A DNA stretch of 49,063 nucleotides, from assembly GCA_023246555.1 (NCBI GenBank), contig JAHFIC010000002.1:1-49063 (forward strand). The letters are read 5' to 3'. Source of the stretch: Candidatus Magasanikiibacteriota bacterium (GTDB lineage Bacteria > Patescibacteriota > Patescibacteriia > Magasanikbacterales > UBA922). This document shows, one piece after another, positions 13,212 through 44,881 of this stretch. How positions within the stretch are numbered: the stretch's first letter is position 1; the number at the start of each line of letters is the position of its first letter. A program made the position numbers and the translations under genes. The notes beneath the pieces were generated by a model. That model was given only the letters and a program-made list of their open reading frames with translations. It had not been told where the DNA came from and did not search any database.

Positions 13212-13898
13212 TTAAGAAGGGATTTCTACCTTAATGCTTGGTCCCATCGAAGTCGTGAGGTAGAGCGATTTGATGTAAGAACCTTTGGAAGACGATGGCT
13301 TGGCTTTTTTGAGGGCGTCCATAAAGGCCATAAAGTTTTCTTTGAGCTGTGCTTCGGAGAAGCTCACTTTGCCAATGGCCTGGTGAACATTGGCTGTGTC
13401 GTCGTTTTTGAATGCGGCTTTGCCTTTTTTGAGTTCGGCAATCATTTTTTTCACATCTTTGCCGACGGTGTCAGTTTTTGGATTCGGCATGAGGCCTTTG
13501 GGTCCGAGCACCTTTGCGGCCATGGCCATTTTGGGCATCATGTCCGGTGTCGCAATCGCAATCTCAAAAGCGATTTTACCGGTGTCTTTGATTTTTTTAA
13601 TGTCTTCCTCGCCATAGACAAAATCAGCGCCAGCTTCTTTGGCATCTTTTTCATCATTCGATCCGACAAATGCTGCCAGAATTTTGGTTTTTCCAGTGCC
13701 GTGGGGAAGGGCGACCGTCGCCCGGATTTGTTGTTCGCCTTTTGATGGATCAATGCCAAGATTGGCGTGGACTTCGACTGAAGCATCGAATTTCACCTTG
13801 CTCGTCTGTTTCACCAGCGCAATCCCCTCGTCGAGCGTGTAAACTTTGTTTTTATCAACCAGTGATTTTGCCGCGGTGATGCGTTTTCCTTCCGCCAT
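13212..13898 (-). CDS. rplA: 50S ribosomal protein L1
   Basis: Full-length L1-like sequence (MAEGKRITAAKSLVDKNKVYTL...). Confidence 0.95.
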   Translation of the reverse strand: MAEGKRITAAKSLVDKNKVYTLDEGIALVKQTSKVKFDASVEVHANLGIDPSKGEQQIRATVALPHGTGKTKILAAFVGSNDEKDAKEAGADFVYGEEDIKKIKDTGKIAFEIAIATPDMMPKMAMAAKVLGPKGLMPNPKTDTVGKDVKKMIAELKKGKAAFKNDDTANVHQAIGKVSFSEAQLKENFMAFMDALKKAKPSSSKGSYIKSLYLTTSMGPSIKVEIPS

Positions 13899-13999
13899 AG
13901 GTATAAGTTAGTGGTACGAACCCCTCGACTATGCGAGGGTCCCACCGATGAATAAATATGCGAATATGATGCCAGAGAGTCGGCTTATTGTCAAGCCAC

Positions 14000-14059: not shown

Positions 14060-14359
14060 ATGAAAACCGCAGTGATCAATGTGAAAACAGAGCCAAGAAT
14101 TAAAAAGAAAGCGCAGAAAATTGCCAATGATTTGGGATTGAGTTTGGGGGGAGTTATCAACGCGCTTCTCCATGATTTTGTGCGCAAACAACGGCTAGAG
14201 GTTGGGTATGAAGAAGAGCTAACGGATTACGCAGTTCAAGCGTTAAAAGAATCGGAGGAAGATATAAAAAATGGTTTCGCTTCTCCCGGCTTTGATAACG
14301 CGAAAGACGCTGTTGCCTGGCTGAAAAATCCACGACGAAAGTGTGCAAATCAGATTTAG
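14060..14359 (+). CDS. type II antitoxin, RelB/DinJ-like ribbon-helix-helix
   Basis: N-terminal INVKTEPRIKKKAQKIANDLGLSLGGVINALL is typical of DinJ/RelB. It overlaps the toxin gene by 17 nt. Confidence 0.75.
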   Translation: MKTAVINVKTEPRIKKKAQKIANDLGLSLGGVINALLHDFVRKQRLEVGYEEELTDYAVQALKESEEDIKNGFASPGFDNAKDAVAWLKNPRRKCANQI

Positions 14360-14606
14360 TCGGACGTTTCAGAAACAATTTGAGAAGGCATCAAAAGAAA
14401 TCCAAGAGGCGCTTGATGAACGAGTGCAAATTTTTCTACAGGATCAGTTTCATCCATTACTAAACAATCATCAGTTGCGTGGTGTATTCGTTGGCTGTCG
14501 AAGTATAAATATCACAGGTAATTGGCGAGTAGTATATCGCTATATTGAGCCGAACACGTTTGTTTTATTTGAATTTTTTGGCACCCACAGTGAACTGTAC
14601 AAATAG
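14343..14606 (+). CDS. type II toxin, RelE/ParE superfamily (YafQ-like mRNA interferase)
   Basis: 87 aa. The LNNHQLRGVFVGCRSINITGNWRVVYRY...FGTHSELY pattern matches RelE/YafQ-type toxins. Confidence 0.75.
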   Translation: MQIRFSRTFQKQFEKASKEIQEALDERVQIFLQDQFHPLLNNHQLRGVFVGCRSINITGNWRVVYRYIEPNTFVLFEFFGTHSELYK

Positions 14607-14608
14607 CT

Positions 14609-15628
14609 TCACTTTTTTTTTATTTCTGTCACATCATTTTGCACTTTGCCAGCGGCAAACGCTTTCACATTTTCAATTGTCGTATCCATGATCCGTTCGA
14701 GCGCCTCGAGCGAATTAAAGGCATTGTGCGGGGTAATGATGACATTGGGATGATCAATCAGCCGATTGTCCATGAGCACCGTTTTGATTTGTTCCGAAGT
14801 ATGGTGGGCGCGGATGAGGTGATCCGGGTGTTGCAGATCTTCTTCTTCTTCGAGCACATCAAGCCCGGCGCCTGCCAAGTGTCCGGTTTCAATCGCCCAA
14901 AGGAGCGCTTCGGTGTCAATCAATCCGCCGCGGGCGGTATTGATAAGATACGCGCCTTGTTTTATTTTTTTAATATTTTTTTTATTGATCAGGTGCGTGG
15001 TTTCTTTGAAAAGCGGCACGTGGAGCGTGATCACGTCGGACGACGCAAGGAGTTTTTCAAACGGGACATACATAAATCCAAGCGTGGTTTCAAGCGCCTT
15101 GTTTGGGAACGCATCGTAGGCAACAATCTTCATGTCAAAACCGGAAAGCATCTTGATCACATGCTTGCCGATGTTTCCGGTGCCAATAACGCCGACAGTC
15201 TTTCCTTTGAGGTCAAATCCACGGAGTCCGTCATAATTGAAGCTGCCTTCCTTCACGCGTTTGACCGACGGGAAGAGTTTCCGTGAGAGCGCCAAAAGGA
15301 GCGCCATGGCGTGTTCGGCCACGGTGTTTTCTCCATAAGTCGGGACATTACAAACCGGGACCTTTCTTTTTTTTGCTTCGTCCAGATCAATGTGGTCAAA
15401 GCCGGTTGACATAGTGACGATGAGTTTGAGCTTTGGCAGTCGATCAAAAACGGTTTTGTCAACCTTTGAACCAACAAAAACTCCCAAGACATCGGTGGTT
15501 GAATCAAGTTCATCGGGCGAAAGAAGCTCTTTCTCTTCGAGCGAAACGTGGAAGTCATTGAGATTTTCTTTCAAATAATCTTTGACCGCGGGGAAAACGC
15601 CGAAAAATTGGCAGGAGGGCTTCTCCAT
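14609..15628 (-). CDS. D-isomer-specific 2-hydroxyacid dehydrogenase (NAD-binding)
   Basis: GVIGTGNIGKHV Rossmann motif and catalytic R/E/H arrangement (ARGGLID...PHNAF). Confidence 0.88.
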   Translation of the reverse strand: MEKPSCQFFGVFPAVKDYLKENLNDFHVSLEEKELLSPDELDSTTDVLGVFVGSKVDKTVFDRLPKLKLIVTMSTGFDHIDLDEAKKRKVPVCNVPTYGENTVAEHAMALLLALSRKLFPSVKRVKEGSFNYDGLRGFDLKGKTVGVIGTGNIGKHVIKMLSGFDMKIVAYDAFPNKALETTLGFMYVPFEKLLASSDVITLHVPLFKETTHLINKKNIKKIKQGAYLINTARGGLIDTEALLWAIETGHLAGAGLDVLEEEEDLQHPDHLIRAHHTSEQIKTVLMDNRLIDHPNVIITPHNAFNSLEALERIMDTTIENVKAFAAGKVQNDVTEIKKK

Positions 15629-15655: not shown

Positions 15656-15901
15656 TTACCTACGTCCAGGGACACCGCCGCCTTCAAGTGATCTTCCTGG
15701 AACACCGCCACCCTCGACATTCCGAGGAATTCCAGGCACTCCACCTCCTGATACTTCGGGGGAGCCGGGGACGCCACCACCGGCATATTTATTGCCGGAC
15801 GGCAATGACAAAGCGGCCAGCGCCGCTGCTCCAGCGAGGAAGGCCGTGGCCACGAGGAGTTTAGTGTTGGTGACGCTTTTTGTTTTGACTTTTGTTTCCA
15901 T
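15656..15901 (-). CDS. small anchored or secreted protein with four GGGVPG (elastin-like) repeats
   Basis: N-terminal hydrophobic segment LLVATAFLAGAAALAAL followed by four GGGVPG units. It shares the strand of its neighbours. The opposite-strand GTPPP ORF overlaps the dehydrogenase start and has no signal peptide. Confidence 0.5.
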   Translation of the reverse strand: METKVKTKSVTNTKLLVATAFLAGAAALAALSLPSGNKYAGGGVPGSPEVSGGGVPGIPRNVEGGGVPGRSLEGGGVPGRR

Positions 15902-15989: not shown

Positions 15990-16415
15990 TTATCCTTCCA
16001 CTACTACTCCCATCTGCCGCGCTGTTCCGGCGATGGTATTCATCGCGGCGTCAATGTCTTTGGTATTCAAGTCAGACAGTTTTTTTTCGGCGATTTCGCG
16101 GAGCTGTTTTTTGGTGATTTTTCCGACTTTATCTTTCAGCGGATTTCCGGCGCCTTTCGGGATGCCGGCCGCTTTGGCAATGAGGCCAGAGGCCGGGGCG
16201 ACTTTGGTGATAAAGGTAAATGACCGGTCTTCAAAGACACTAATCACGACCGGCACTATTTCGCCTTTTCGATCCTGGGTTGCGTCATTGAATTTCTTAC
16301 AGAAATCCTGAATGTTCAAGCCGTGCTGGCCGAGCGCTGGTCCGACCGGAGGAGCGGGGTTCGCCGCGCCGCCCGTGATTTGCAGTTTGATTTGAGTAAC
16401 AAGTTTTTTGGCCAT
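15990..16415 (-). CDS. rplK: 50S ribosomal protein L11
   Basis: [32 protein letters not shown] is a canonical L11 N-terminus. Confidence 0.95.
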
Positions 16416-16426
16416 ACAATTATTTT

Positions 16427-16461
16427 GCTTTCAGCTGTCGGCTGTCTGCTTTCAGCTACCT
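16427..16461. repeat. heptamer array, 5 x GCTNNNN (left flank of the four-helix-bundle gene)
   Basis: Reads GCTTTCA GCTGTCG GCTGTCT GCTTTCA GCTACCT on the plus strand. Confidence 0.85.
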
Positions 16462-16496
16462 ACTTGAGAAGCGTCTCTTGCGAGAACCAAGTAAGA

Positions 16497-16850
16497 TCAT
16501 TTATTTAGTACTTGGATAAATGCGTTAATTCTTTTCCCTAAGTCGTGACTTTTATGATATACATTATCAAACATGGTTTTGTCAATGTATCCTTGGTCTA
16601 GTGCAATGTAACAGCCAGAAATAACTTCATTGAGCGATGTGTAAGCGATTCGGAGAAAACGAGCAAAGTCAATATCTGAACCTCGATCTGTACCCTCGGC
16701 AATATTTAACATTACTGATATTCCCGCACGACGTATCTGGGAAGTTAATGCGAAAAGTTCATCTTTTGGGAATAATTTGGTTAGCTTGTAAATAATGCGA
16801 ACAAACTCTCGTGCCATTTGCCAAATTTCCAATTTTTCGAAACGGTACAC
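16497..16850 (-). CDS. four-helix-bundle protein (23S rRNA intervening-sequence protein / Avd-like family)
   Basis: FEKLEIWQMAREF...LTSQIRRAGISVMLNIAEGTDRGS...SLNEV pattern is typical of this family. The GTG start lies inside the last heptamer of the right array. Confidence 0.85.
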   Translation of the reverse strand: MYRFEKLEIWQMAREFVRIIYKLTKLFPKDELFALTSQIRRAGISVMLNIAEGTDRGSDIDFARFLRIAYTSLNEVISGCYIALDQGYIDKTMFDNVYHKSHDLGKRINAFIQVLNK

Positions 16851-16882
16851 AAGCCGAAAGCTGATTGCCGAAGGCCGAGAGC
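16848..16882. repeat. heptamer array, 5 units, inverted relative to 16427-16461
   Basis: The reverse complement reads GCTCTCG GCCTTCG GCAATCA GCTTTCG GCTTGTG. Confidence 0.85.
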
Positions 16883-16895
16883 GTCAAAAAAATCC

Positions 16896-17441
16896 TCAGA
16901 TTTTTTTGACCTGAAGCGCATCCAATTCCACTGGTGTCTCGCGGCCGAACATGGATACGAGCACTTTAACTTTGCCGCGGGTTTCGTCGACCGCGCTTAC
17001 TTTCCCTTCAAAGTTTTTGAACGGCCCATCGATAATGCGCACGGCCTCGTCGATAGCGATATCAATAGTATGCACTGGTTCGTCCACTCCCATGCGCTTC
17101 TGCAGATCTTCCACTTCTTTTTGGTCTACCGGGGTAGGGGTCGTACCAGAACCCACGAATCCTGTCACATTCGGCGTGTTTCGAACAACATACCATGAAT
17201 CATCGGTCACAATCATTTCTACGAGCACATAGCCGGGAAAGATCTTTTCTTCCACGGTGACGCGTTTTCCGGACTTGATTTTGATTTTCTTTTCTTTGGG
17301 CACCAGAACCTGAAAAATTTTATCGCCCATATCAAACGATTCGACACGTTGTTCGAGGTTGCGTTTGACGTTTTCTTCGTAGCCGCTATAGGTATGGAGC
17401 ACGTACCAGCGCCGGCCGAGATTCAAGGTTTGTTTGGCCAT
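16896..17441 (-). CDS. nusG: transcription termination/antitermination factor NusG
   Basis: RWYVLHTYSGYEENVKRNL N-terminus and a KOW domain; 181 aa. Confidence 0.95.
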   Translation of the reverse strand: MAKQTLNLGRRWYVLHTYSGYEENVKRNLEQRVESFDMGDKIFQVLVPKEKKIKIKSGKRVTVEEKIFPGYVLVEMIVTDDSWYVVRNTPNVTGFVGSGTTPTPVDQKEVEDLQKRMGVDEPVHTIDIAIDEAVRIIDGPFKNFEGKVSAVDETRGKVKVLVSMFGRETPVELDALQVKKI

Positions 17442-17630: not shown

Positions 17631-17645
17631 AGGATTTTTTGTATC

Positions 17646-17665
17646 TAAAAACGGCCTGTGGCCGG
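17646..17665 (-). terminator. short GC hairpin plus U5 in the secE-nusG 5' leader
   Basis: Minus RNA reads CGGCC-ACA-GGCCG-UUUUU. It lies between the candidate promoter (17675-17703) and the secE AUG. Confidence 0.45.
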
Positions 17666-17674
17666 TATGGATTT

Positions 17675-17703
17675 ACTCTACCTGGTTGTGCTGTTTCTGT
17701 CAA
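17675..17703 (-). promoter_or_regulatory. candidate secE-nusG promoter
   Basis: Minus strand reads TTGACA (17703-17698), a 17-nt spacer, then TAGAGT (17680-17675). Its -35 box is back-to-back with the plus-strand TTGACA at 17705-17710. Confidence 0.5.
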
Positions 17704-17704
17704 C

Positions 17705-17733
17705 TTGACAGGAGTGGATAAGTGTGATAGGAT
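17705..17733 (+). promoter_or_regulatory. candidate promoter of the high-GC lipoprotein gene
   Basis: TTGACA, a 17-nt spacer, then TAGGAT. The ATG at 17741 is 7 nt after the -10 box, so the mRNA may be leaderless. Confidence 0.4.
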
Positions 17734-17740
17734 GTTTCTC

Positions 17741-18115
17741 ATGCGCATCAACCAGATGCTGCTCACTGCGTTCCTGGTCGCCTGTGCGACCCTCGTGGCC
17801 TCGTGTCACGAGATCTCGTCCGAGTCCGACTCCCTGCCCGCGGGTGTGCGGGAGCCGATCGTCGTGGTGGTGCCCCTGGTGGTGCCCCTGCCGGTCGGGC
17901 AGTCCGTCGCCAGCATGGTGTATCAGGTTCCGGGTGCGCACGTGGGGGCCACCCTCGACTGCAGCGGCATCCCGCACGACCGGCGCCTCACGCGCCAGCT
18001 GCAGCCCGGCCAGCACGTGGCCTTCTGCGATCGGAATTGGCAGCCCATTCAGGTGGCAGTGCCCGTCGCGGAGGCCGTCTTCTACGACGATCCCGCCGAC
18101 GCCGGTTGCAAGTAG
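17741..18115 (+). CDS. small lipoprotein on a high-GC islet
   Basis: MRINQMLLTAFLVACATLVASC gives a signal peptide plus lipobox-like VASC. Third codon positions are almost all G/C, unlike neighbouring genes. A plus-strand terminator follows. Other frames in this region look like GC shadow ORFs. Confidence 0.5.
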   Translation: MRINQMLLTAFLVACATLVASCHEISSESDSLPAGVREPIVVVVPLVVPLPVGQSVASMVYQVPGAHVGATLDCSGIPHDRRLTRQLQPGQHVAFCDRNWQPIQVAVPVAEAVFYDDPADAGCK

Positions 18116-18200
18116 CGCCGGGGCTCCCCGACAGTCTCGGCTCCTAAACGGAGCCCCAACCCGCGTCGGTACGCGGCGACCAAGCATTGTTCTTTCTCCT

Positions 18201-18230: not shown

Positions 18231-20372
<2,142 letters not shown>

Positions 20373-44086: not shown

Positions 44087-44881
44087 ATGATAAAAAAACA
44101 AACATCCTGGGGGAATGTCGCTCTGTGGTATCACGAGCTTTTGAAAAACGGTAAAGGCACCTATCAGCACGACGTGATTCTTCCTCAGATCGTGCGATTA
44201 CTTGAGCCCAAAAAAGGACAAACGGTTCTTGATCTTGCTTGCGGACCAGGGTTTTTCGCGCGTGAATTCGCAAAAATGGGTCCGAAGGTGATTGGTATTG
44301 ATATTGCGGAAGAGTTGATTCTATTTGCAAAAAAGGCCACCGCCCTGGGCGGGGCCACGCCTACCGGCGGGAAGGTGCAAAATTTGGAGTTTTTCGTTAC
44401 GCCTGCGGATCACATTCCCATGATAAAAAATAAAAGTGTCGACGCGGTGACGATCATTCTCGCGCTTCAGAATATTGAAAACATGGCTGGTGTTTTTGCC
44501 GAATGCAGCCGAGTGCTGAAGGCTGACGGCCGATTGCTTCTCGTATTGAACCACCCCGCCTTTCGCGTGCCGAAAGCGAGCGACTGGGGGTGGGATGAGG
44601 AAAACAAGATTCAGTACCGTCGTGTTGATGCCTATATGAGCGAGGCGCGGGTAAAAATTGACATGCATCCTGGCGACGACCCATCCGTCCACACTTGGTC
44701 ATTTCATCGGCCGCTTCAGATCTACATGAAAGCACTCCATAAAGCAGGATTTTCCGTGACACGCTTGGAAGAATGGATTTCTAACCGGCAAGGCCCTAAA
44801 GGGAAGCGCTTTGCGGCAAGCGAGAAGGCACGCAAAGAGATACCATTGTTTTTATTTCTTGAAGCATTCATGGCATCATGA
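44087..44881 (+). CDS. class I SAM-dependent methyltransferase
   Basis: VLDLACGPGFF motif I. Confidence 0.85.
   Translation: MIKKQTSWGNVALWYHELLKNGKGTYQHDVILPQIVRLLEPKKGQTVLDLACGPGFFAREFAKMGPKVIGIDIAEELILFAKKATALGGATPTGGKVQNLEFFVTPADHIPMIKNKSVDAVTIILALQNIENMAGVFAECSRVLKADGRLLLVLNHPAFRVPKASDWGWDEENKIQYRRVDAYMSEARVKIDMHPGDDPSVHTWSFHRPLQIYMKALHKAGFSVTRLEEWISNRQGPKGKRFAASEKARKEIPLFLFLEAFMAS

Follow-up and report, generated by a model that had tools for sequence, protein, structure and literature searches.

A four-helix-bundle protein gene between complementary tandem-heptamer arms in a nusG–rplK spacer: a putative intervening-sequence-type cassette outside rRNA

The window analyzed here, a 49,063-nucleotide (nt) stretch of DNA from a Candidatus Magasanikiibacteriota bacterium (GenBank assembly GCA_023246555.1, contig JAHFIC010000002.1), carries in the spacer between nusG and rplK a 117-codon gene for a four-helix-bundle (4HB) protein, which is boxed by two inverted arrays of tandem heptamers. 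We consider it reasonably likely that this insert is a cassette of the type of the intervening sequences (IVSs) of 23S rRNA, placed in sense orientation in the nusG–rplK transcript, whose arms pair and loop the insert out, with a cut by RNase III as a likely consequence.

Arms and gene in the nusG–rplK spacer

The gene order on the minus strand is secE, nusG, the 117-codon 4HB open reading frame (ORF) and rplK, and the insert in the nusG–rplK spacer measures approximately 450 nt. Its host genes are nusG upstream (16896–17441, minus strand; Pfam domains NusG and KOW) and rplK, encoding L11, downstream (15990–16415, minus strand; Ribosomal_L11_N and Ribosomal_L11). In transcript sense, the 5′ arm (16848–16882, minus strand) starts 13 nt past the nusG stop codon and consists of the five heptamers GCTCTCG GCCTTCG GCAATCA GCTTTCG GCTTGTG. 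It is followed by the 4HB gene (16497–16850, minus strand), by a native spacer hairpin with a GCUUCUC motif (16462–16496, minus strand; GAGAAGC on the plus strand at 16466–16472) and by the 3′ arm (16427–16461, minus strand), AGGTAGC TGAAAGC AGACAGC CGACAGC TGAAAGC, which on the plus strand reads GCTTTCA GCTGTCG GCTGTCT GCTTTCA GCTACCT. The rplK ATG is located 11 nt beyond the end of this arm. Both 35-nt arrays are made of five heptamers each, letter for letter as the initial annotation of the window had given them.

Arrays of this kind are rare in the window. The pattern (GCN5)x4+GC was matched eight times against 0.11 matches expected, and none of 100 shuffles reached eight; two of the matches are the arms, five overlap within an array in gyrB, and one is located at 44508. 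This last match was rejected as an array, as it is without array character and lies inside a long ORF (which we take to encode a methyltransferase), and it was regarded as a chance occurrence.

The two arms are complementary to each other. An inverted-repeat search recovered them over 31 nt with 74% complementarity and, in register on the minus-strand transcript, 26 of the 35 positions are paired when G-U pairs are included, close to the 25 or so claimed previously. The arm–arm duplex has a predicted energy of −37.1 kcal/mol, compared to −18.0 ± 3.7 kcal/mol for 2000 shuffles, none of which was as stable (best shuffle, −31.8 kcal/mol), and among 9806 same-strand 35-nt windows taken from the whole 49 kb the best partner of the 5′ arm was the 3′ arm. 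Registers shifted by 7 nt in either direction still pair 20–21 of 28 positions. In a 481-nt transcript, the long-range stem was present in both the minimum free energy (MFE) and the centroid fold. The z-score of the whole-molecule fold was only −1.29, a value that is uninformative because the interior of the loop is coding sequence; hence, the arm–arm duplex tests were used in its place. Rfam yielded no match, either at the gathering threshold or at E ≤ 1.

By its profile matches, the 117-codon gene is a member of the PF05635/TIGR02436 family, to which the 23S rRNA IVS protein and Avd belong. The 117-amino acid (aa) protein matched PF05635 with an E-value of 5.6e-35 (120.2 bits, cut-off 33.8) and TIGR02436, "four helix bundle protein", with 3.2e-33 (114.2 bits, cut-off 24), and its length falls within the approximately 115–125 aa of the family. 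The family core motif (Q/R..S...N..E) is present, Q38, R41, S45, N49 and E52 being invariant in an alignment of 21 homologues, and close homologues also match PF22296 (bAvd). Among proteins of solved structure, the closest sequence match was Xcc0516 (2GSC; 1.3e-18), followed by 2RLD (5.6e-06). The final heptamer of the 5′ arm, GCTTGTG, contains the GTG start at 16850, as had been proposed for this ORF; the proposal is upheld by the profile matches and by the start itself, which is supported because the N-terminal RFExLxVWQ motif is conserved and an ATG occupies the same place in the orthologous locus L001. The gene call in the database (P0001, 106 aa) starts too late, at an internal ATG, for which reason the full 117-aa sequence had no exact counterpart there. 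Two further database proteins, P0018 and P0031, have long C-terminal tails with a seven-residue periodicity, which look like gene-call artefacts produced by read-through of a downstream heptamer array.

The 4HB protein is under strong purifying selection, with ratios of nonsynonymous to synonymous substitution (dN/dS) of 0.05 for the window and L001 and of 0.017 for the orthologous pair L003 and L004. The ORF has a GC content of 0.367 compared to 0.493 in the window and, in every orthologue, it is 7–18 GC points below its neighbors (0.31–0.38 vs. 0.38–0.56). This low GC content persists although synonymous sites between the window and L001 are near saturation.

Recurrence of the cassette among relatives

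The closest homologues of the 4HB protein (83–55% identity) are also encoded between nusG and rplK. Fifteen orthologous loci were compared, comprising L001, L002/L003 (from a Magasanikbacteria metagenome-assembled genome), L004, L005/L006 and L009 together with nine loci from a NusG-based metagenome scan. In all 15 cassettes tandem arrays are found on both sides of the gene; the 5′ arm starts 0–12 nt past the nusG stop, and 1–30 nt separate the end of the 3′ arm from the rplK ATG. The arm duplex was better than all 300 shuffles in 11 of the 15. The repeat unit itself differs between loci: a GCTTTCG-type unit is found in the window, L001 and L097, GACTTCG in L005 and L111, GACTACG in L003, L004 and L103, and CAATAATCAAGATA is a further unit. 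Nonetheless, the upstream and downstream arrays are complementary to each other in every case, so that both arms change together. Since unit number and phase vary between loci, columns in an alignment of the arms are not homologous. Between the window and L001, 30 of 35 positions are identical in the 5′ arm and 26 of 35 in the 3′ arm, compared to 35–47% identity at 4-fold degenerate sites. With arm identity far above that of near-saturated synonymous sites, the arms are under constraint.

The gene is polymorphic for presence and absence. Of 72 NusG relatives in whose sequence rplK is also visible, those nearest to the window (90, 86, 86 and 85% NusG identity) have spacers of 65–150 nt without a 4HB gene, and spacers shorter than 45 nt are found in 13. 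Ten of the 72 carry a 4HB gene, nine of them from the subfamily of the window and the tenth being the divergent L148. Mapped on a NusG tree, which is built on 181 residues and too poorly resolved to orient the events, the gene has a patchy distribution that requires at least 11 changes; NusG and 4HB distances are weakly correlated (rho 0.24). Homologous recombination through nusG and rplK is a plausible means by which entire spacer alleles could spread. A 63%-identical homologue with GACTAC-type arms is located at another locus in L007. Further, L148 (2582–2935) and L129 (2572–2964), as well as L125, carry just 3′ of nusG a PF05635 member of approximately 25% identity with arrays of its own, which in L148 form a perfect 24-bp stem; this arrangement looks like an independent colonization of the same spacer.

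Arrays are also present in spacers that lack the gene. By visual count, about 18–20 ORF-less nusG–rplK spacers have inverted tandem arrays (among them L093, L135, L144, L137, L151, L158, L130, L139, L140, L132, L164 and L168), with lineage-specific units of 7–9 nt that flank the GCTTCTC hairpin in some cases and form a hairpin upstream of it in others. These arrays may be relatives or remnants of the cassette.

The GCTTCTC hairpin was found in nearly all empty spacers and in all of the first six 4HB-bearing loci; because it is present in most spacers, including the empty ones, it belongs to the native spacer and not to the insert. In the window it folds in both the MFE and the centroid structure. 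RNAalifold gave no consensus for it on a MAFFT alignment, and it had no match in Rfam. This small nested hairpin, with its invariant GCUUCUC on the 3′ side, is conserved in most relatives (approximately 50 loci, in spacers L090–L169). Judged by eye, its two helices covary, and we propose it as a candidate motif of the rplK leader in this Patescibacteria clade.

A scan of GTDB genomes with a smaller family alignment yielded 80 more distant loci (L010–L089; 37–52% identity) from Flavobacteriia, Acidobacteriota, Planctomycetota, Verrucomicrobiota, several Patescibacteria and other groups. The flanks of these genes have strong period-7 repeats, sometimes with period 8 or 9. The density of strict arrays is 3.64 per kb in the 150 nt on either side of the gene, 0.83 per kb in the remaining intergenic DNA of these loci and 0.10 per kb in coding sequence; period 7–9 arrays are thus 4.4-fold more frequent beside the gene than elsewhere between genes (p 5e-13). 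By Watson–Crick local alignment, 48 of 70 distant loci had upstream and downstream flanks with a complementarity greater than in any of 210 shuffles; in 51 of 70 it lay above the 95th percentile seen in mismatched pairs of loci. This alignment was more discriminating than RNAduplex energies, which on 120-nt flanks gave only a moderate separation (medians of −51 for true vs. −36 for mismatched pairs). The units are again lineage-specific (GTGAATA, GTTCAAATA, GTAGGCA, GGTTGTC and AGGGACAA, among others), their number ranges from approximately three to more than ten, and their length from 7 to 9 nt or more.

The 4HB gene is co-oriented with both neighbors in 47 loci and opposed to both in two. 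Median gaps to the neighbors are only 75 and 56 nt and, consequently, the arms fill the spacers. Whatever the unit, the 5′ arm has more G than C in 40 of 45 loci (p 1e-7); by hand count, the 5′ arms of the window and L001 appear to be exceptions to this polarity. Together, the sense orientation and the G-over-C asymmetry suggest that either the transcript or one strand of the DNA is constrained. The context of L071, with flanks read by eye, is apparently the rplB–rpsS spacer, that is, another housekeeping operon.

The initial annotation had put forward several checks of its proposal, namely the stability of the arm duplex against shuffled sequence, the co-occurrence of arrays with the gene family, an empty site in relatives and a search for orthologues without arrays. 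The duplex results, the array densities together with the 48 complementary distant loci, and the gene-free spacers of the closest NusG relatives all came out in line with it, and the orthologues keep the ORF with arrays in spite of the changed unit.

Known systems and competing readings

The nearest known counterparts are the ORF-bearing IVSs of 23S rRNA in Leptospira and Coxiella burnetii, with which the cassette shares a homologous 4HB ORF. In Coxiella, the ends of the IVS are inverted repeats forming a 28-bp stem, which RNase III cuts in its middle in vitro, and a variable number of tandem GACAGAT heptamers lies just upstream of the ORF (PMC4990558). This IVS has a GC content of 36% vs. 42.5%, the distribution of the IVS is sporadic, and its ORF was reported to be probably untranslated and decaying (PMC4990558). 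Likewise, the cassette has complementary termini that would form a long stem around the ORF, variable-copy tandem heptamers right upstream of the start codon, a sense orientation in a highly expressed host transcript, an AT-rich insert (36.7% vs. 49.3% GC in the window) and a sporadic distribution. Unlike the 23S IVSs, which lie in helix 25 or 45, its host is the spacer of an mRNA. No rRNA was found in the 49-kb window and the insert lies between protein genes, so its location is not that of an rRNA IVS. Also unlike the 23S IVSs, the arms of the window consist wholly of tandem repeats and enclose a native leader hairpin and, in contrast with Coxiella, the ORF is under strong purifying selection and cutting by RNase III is predicted by analogy. 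The initial annotation had described a self-contained IVS-like module. The likeness to an IVS is borne out by Coxiella, but the module is not self-contained, given that the native rplK-leader hairpin lies inside the arms, many ORF-less inverted arrays occupy the same spacer, and arm units also occur elsewhere, in gyrB and in 17 of 35 extra arrays.

According to the proposed mechanism, the arms on the polycistronic RNA would pair into a long-range helix of approximately 25–33 bp, starting just after the nusG stop and ending just before the rplK start. Both the ORF and the native rplK-leader hairpin would be looped out by this helix, and the nusG stop and the rplK start would come near each other again; with the cistrons back in proximity, an insertion of 450 nt could be tolerated. 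RNase III probably cuts the helix, to judge from the homologous 23S IVS of Coxiella, which is cut in the middle of its stem; such a cut would free the 4HB mRNA and part the nusG message from that of rplK. Being made of repeats, the arms could pair in several registers, and slippage could make them grow, shrink and change units while complementarity is kept. The cassette and its ORF-less versions are gained and lost among close relatives. Pairing in vivo, like the RNase III cut, the role of the protein and the mode of spread of the cassette, is inferred.

Several observations weigh against this mechanism. The stem in the window is imperfect, with a longest unbroken run of 10 bp, and in four of the 15 orthologous cassettes the arms are weak (L009, L096, L121 and L128). 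The changes between the arms of the window and L001 are all one-sided, with no compensatory double changes. Over 70 loci, 46 arm mismatches were G-U-compatible on the sense strand vs. 67 on the antisense strand only, that is, without an excess, and sense and antisense duplex energies do not differ. Because of this lack of a G-U excess, selection at the RNA level is unproven, and upkeep of the arms at the DNA level, for instance by slippage or gene conversion, is possible. No RNase III gene or signature was found within the 49-kb window. In addition, the enclosed rplK-leader hairpin would be excised with the ORF, which would be awkward if it were needed in cis. Finally, arrays with arm units occur away from any 4HB gene.

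A different reading is that of a repeat system at the DNA level. In REPIN/RAYT systems, a single-copy gene is flanked by inverted, short, genome-specific repeats that are also dispersed without the gene, and gene and repeat co-vary. The cassette has a similar layout, a gene between inverted genome-specific repeats that also occur ORF-less elsewhere, and its arrays might be spread or kept in DNA, with the 4HB gene as an accessory and the RNA helix as a by-product. In the 4HB loci, 17 of 35 extra arrays have the unit of the arms, compared to 11 of 290 cross-locus controls; at L046 940–1080, an ORF-less inverted-array hairpin with the unit of the L046 4HB arms lies in another spacer. In the window, gyrB (18231–20333, minus strand) contains nine in-frame tandem heptamers (63 nt, 18456–18518, same strand), whose sense-strand units NNNCAGC and CGAAAGC are those of the 3′ arm. 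This array is located in a variable linker of GyrB, between ...EADIQEAN and KLNIQRYKG; in L005, the GyrB linker is different at the same place and also repetitive. The ORF-less arrays in the nusG–rplK spacers of relatives, the many arrays (0.83 per kb) in other intergenic DNA of 4HB-bearing loci, the lack of a G-U excess in arm mismatches, the patchy distribution, and the gene with its arm type at a different locus in L007 fit this reading as well. However, the cassette has tandem arrays in place of single palindromic units, and its gene product matches PF05635 only and is not a RAYT, that is, an IS200/IS605-like tyrosine transposase. It is a small helical bundle without transposase fold or motifs, whose solved relatives (2GSC and 2RLD) are uncharacterized 4HB proteins, and we know of no nuclease or recombinase motif in the PF05635 family. 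Moreover, the 47:2 sense orientation and the G-over-C asymmetry of the 5′ arm suggest a constraint on the transcript, and neither target-site duplications nor identical dispersed copies, nor any other sign of transposition, were found in the data examined. Taken together, we regard a DNA-level repeat system of this kind as rather unlikely to be the explanation.

The arrays could also serve as binding sites, in RNA or DNA, of a pentameric Avd-like 4HB protein that regulates its own translation or acts as a chaperone of the flanking transcript. Avd, a member of the family that assists diversity-generating retroelements (DGRs), is a positively charged pentameric barrel that binds structured RNA beside its DGR gene (10.1101/2023.10.23.563531), and Xcc0516, the closest relative of known structure, is a homopentamer (PMC4990558). 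In agreement with such a role, the arms of the window count five units each, the last unit of the 5′ arm contains the start codon, the protein is under strong purifying selection, and the units are lineage-specific and move together with the gene. Nonetheless, a unit number between about three and more than ten, a unit length between 7 and 9 nt or more, and the frequency of ORF-less arrays speak against it, and we hold this role to be improbable as the explanation. It is compatible, as is the REPIN/RAYT-like reading, with a loop-out helix. A DGR itself is not indicated: the likeness to Avd is one of protein superfamily, and the neighbors of the 4HB gene are nusG, rplK, secE and gyrB. No YxDD reverse-transcriptase motif was found in window ORFs longer than 250 aa, template and variable repeats not having been searched for specifically, and no reverse-transcriptase Pfam domain was present among the called genes of L001–L009.

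Coincidence, in the form of simple repeats made by slippage on both sides of an unrelated gene, would be in keeping with heptamer arrays elsewhere, both in gyrB of the window and in intergenic DNA of related genomes, and with the genome-wide heptamers of cyanobacteria, Xanthomonas (PMC4692102) and Beggiatoa (PMC4679880), but it is highly improbable in view of an arm complementarity that no shuffle matched, either in the window or in 48 of the 70 distant loci, the 4.4-fold enrichment of arrays over other intergenic DNA, arm conservation well above synonymous sites and an architecture kept in 15 orthologous loci despite the change of unit.

The short tandemly repeated repetitive (STRR) arrays just alluded to merit comparison in their own right. 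Like the arrays of STRR type, those of Xanthomonas and those of Beggiatoa, the cassette arrays repeat a 7-nt unit in tandem, have a consensus specific to the genome and lie for the most part between genes, often in operons; in the 49 kb of genome covered, the two arms and the gyrB array share units, as is typical of such arrays. To judge by the title of a 1997 report by Vioque, STRR arrays reportedly lie inside the cyanobacterial RNase P RNA gene. In Xanthomonas, GGGAATC heptamer arrays form approximately 70 convergent (inverted) pairs (PMC4692102), and the Beggiatoa unit is TAACTGA (PMC4679880). The arrays of the window differ in being short (five units), strictly paired and located in a Patescibacteria-type bacterium. 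In the accessible literature on arrays of this type (Xanthomonas, Nostoc and Beggiatoa), no link to the PF05635 family or to the boxing of a gene was found. PF05635 genes have been reported inside cas operons, where repeats were not mentioned (PMC3936711).

Surroundings of the locus and wider meaning

A palindrome, GUCAAAAAAAUC-UGAG-GAUUUUUUUGAC (16883–16910, minus strand), spans the nusG stop and directly abuts the 5′ arm. Its halves (16883–16894 and 16899–16910) are 12-bp arms with 100% complementarity, and the hairpin has a predicted energy of −11.0 kcal/mol. The initial annotation was correct as to the perfect 12 bp and the position over the nusG stop, but not in calling the palindrome all-A/U, as it bears G-C and C-G end pairs. 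The 5′ half codes for the last residues of NusG, and among the orthologues the palindrome is kept in L001 only. The U-run of its 3′ half (16883–16894) has two alternative partners, the nusG-coding A-run and the A-rich rplK leader (16416–16426), and pairing with the latter lengthens the long-range stem and is part of the predicted duplex in L001. The choice of partner could constitute a switch that depends on the presence of a ribosome at the nusG stop. Scans for promoters and terminators gave results no better than those with shuffled sequence.

Upstream of nusG lies secE (17630–17445, minus strand). The cluster secE–nusG–rplK–rplA, taken as compact in the initial annotation, turned out not to be so: rplA (13212–13907, minus strand) lies 2 kb past rplK, with three further loci in between. 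These are an 81-aa ORF with GGGVPG repeats and no Pfam match (15656–15901), a 2-hydroxyacid dehydrogenase gene (14609–15628) and, on the strand opposite to the latter, a YafQ/ParE-type toxin gene (14343–14606) with a putative antitoxin gene (14060–14359). The dehydrogenase gene also follows rplK in L002, L005 and L009, with rplA approximately 2 kb further on in L002 and L005. The interval between secE and gyrB contains a GC-rich island (17700–18150; 0.66–0.70 vs. 0.49 in the window) with long ORFs in several frames. A plus-strand ORF at 17639–18115, without a Pfam match, presumably encodes a lipoprotein-like product; at its position, relatives have an unannotated gene of 249–268 aa on the opposite strand.

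The claim that a unit of gene and arrays had not been described needs to be divided. The combination of heptamers, stem and ORF had already been noted for the Coxiella rRNA IVS, while the generality of the unit and its presence in an mRNA spacer stand: no general description of a gene with inverted arrays, nor an occurrence in an mRNA spacer, was found in the accessible literature, most subscription journals being outside the search. What appear to be new are therefore this generality and this location, an element of IVS type found elsewhere than in rRNA.

Few small bacterial proteins of unknown function are as common as those of the PF05635/TIGR02436 family, and the meaning of ORF-bearing rRNA IVSs has been a question since the early 1990s. 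Tentatively, one may go further and suppose that stand-alone PF05635 genes with inverted tandem-repeat arms make up a widespread, hitherto unrecognized class of operon-embedded cassettes of which the rRNA IVSs are a special case. In such a class, with a layout like that of REPIN/RAYT systems, the protein might be a specificity factor that binds, and helps to maintain or spread, genome-specific arrays of 7–9-nt units, which are also scattered without the ORF in spacers and in variable protein linkers; although possible, we regard this as doubtful. Complementary arms, sense placement in housekeeping operons, and gain and loss among relatives provide a concrete, testable unit that extends the IVS concept from rRNA to mRNA, and genome-wide, STRR-like heptamer arrays are thereby tied to a specific protein family. 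For annotation, the finding is a warning that spacers of this kind are structured inserts rather than simple-repeat noise.

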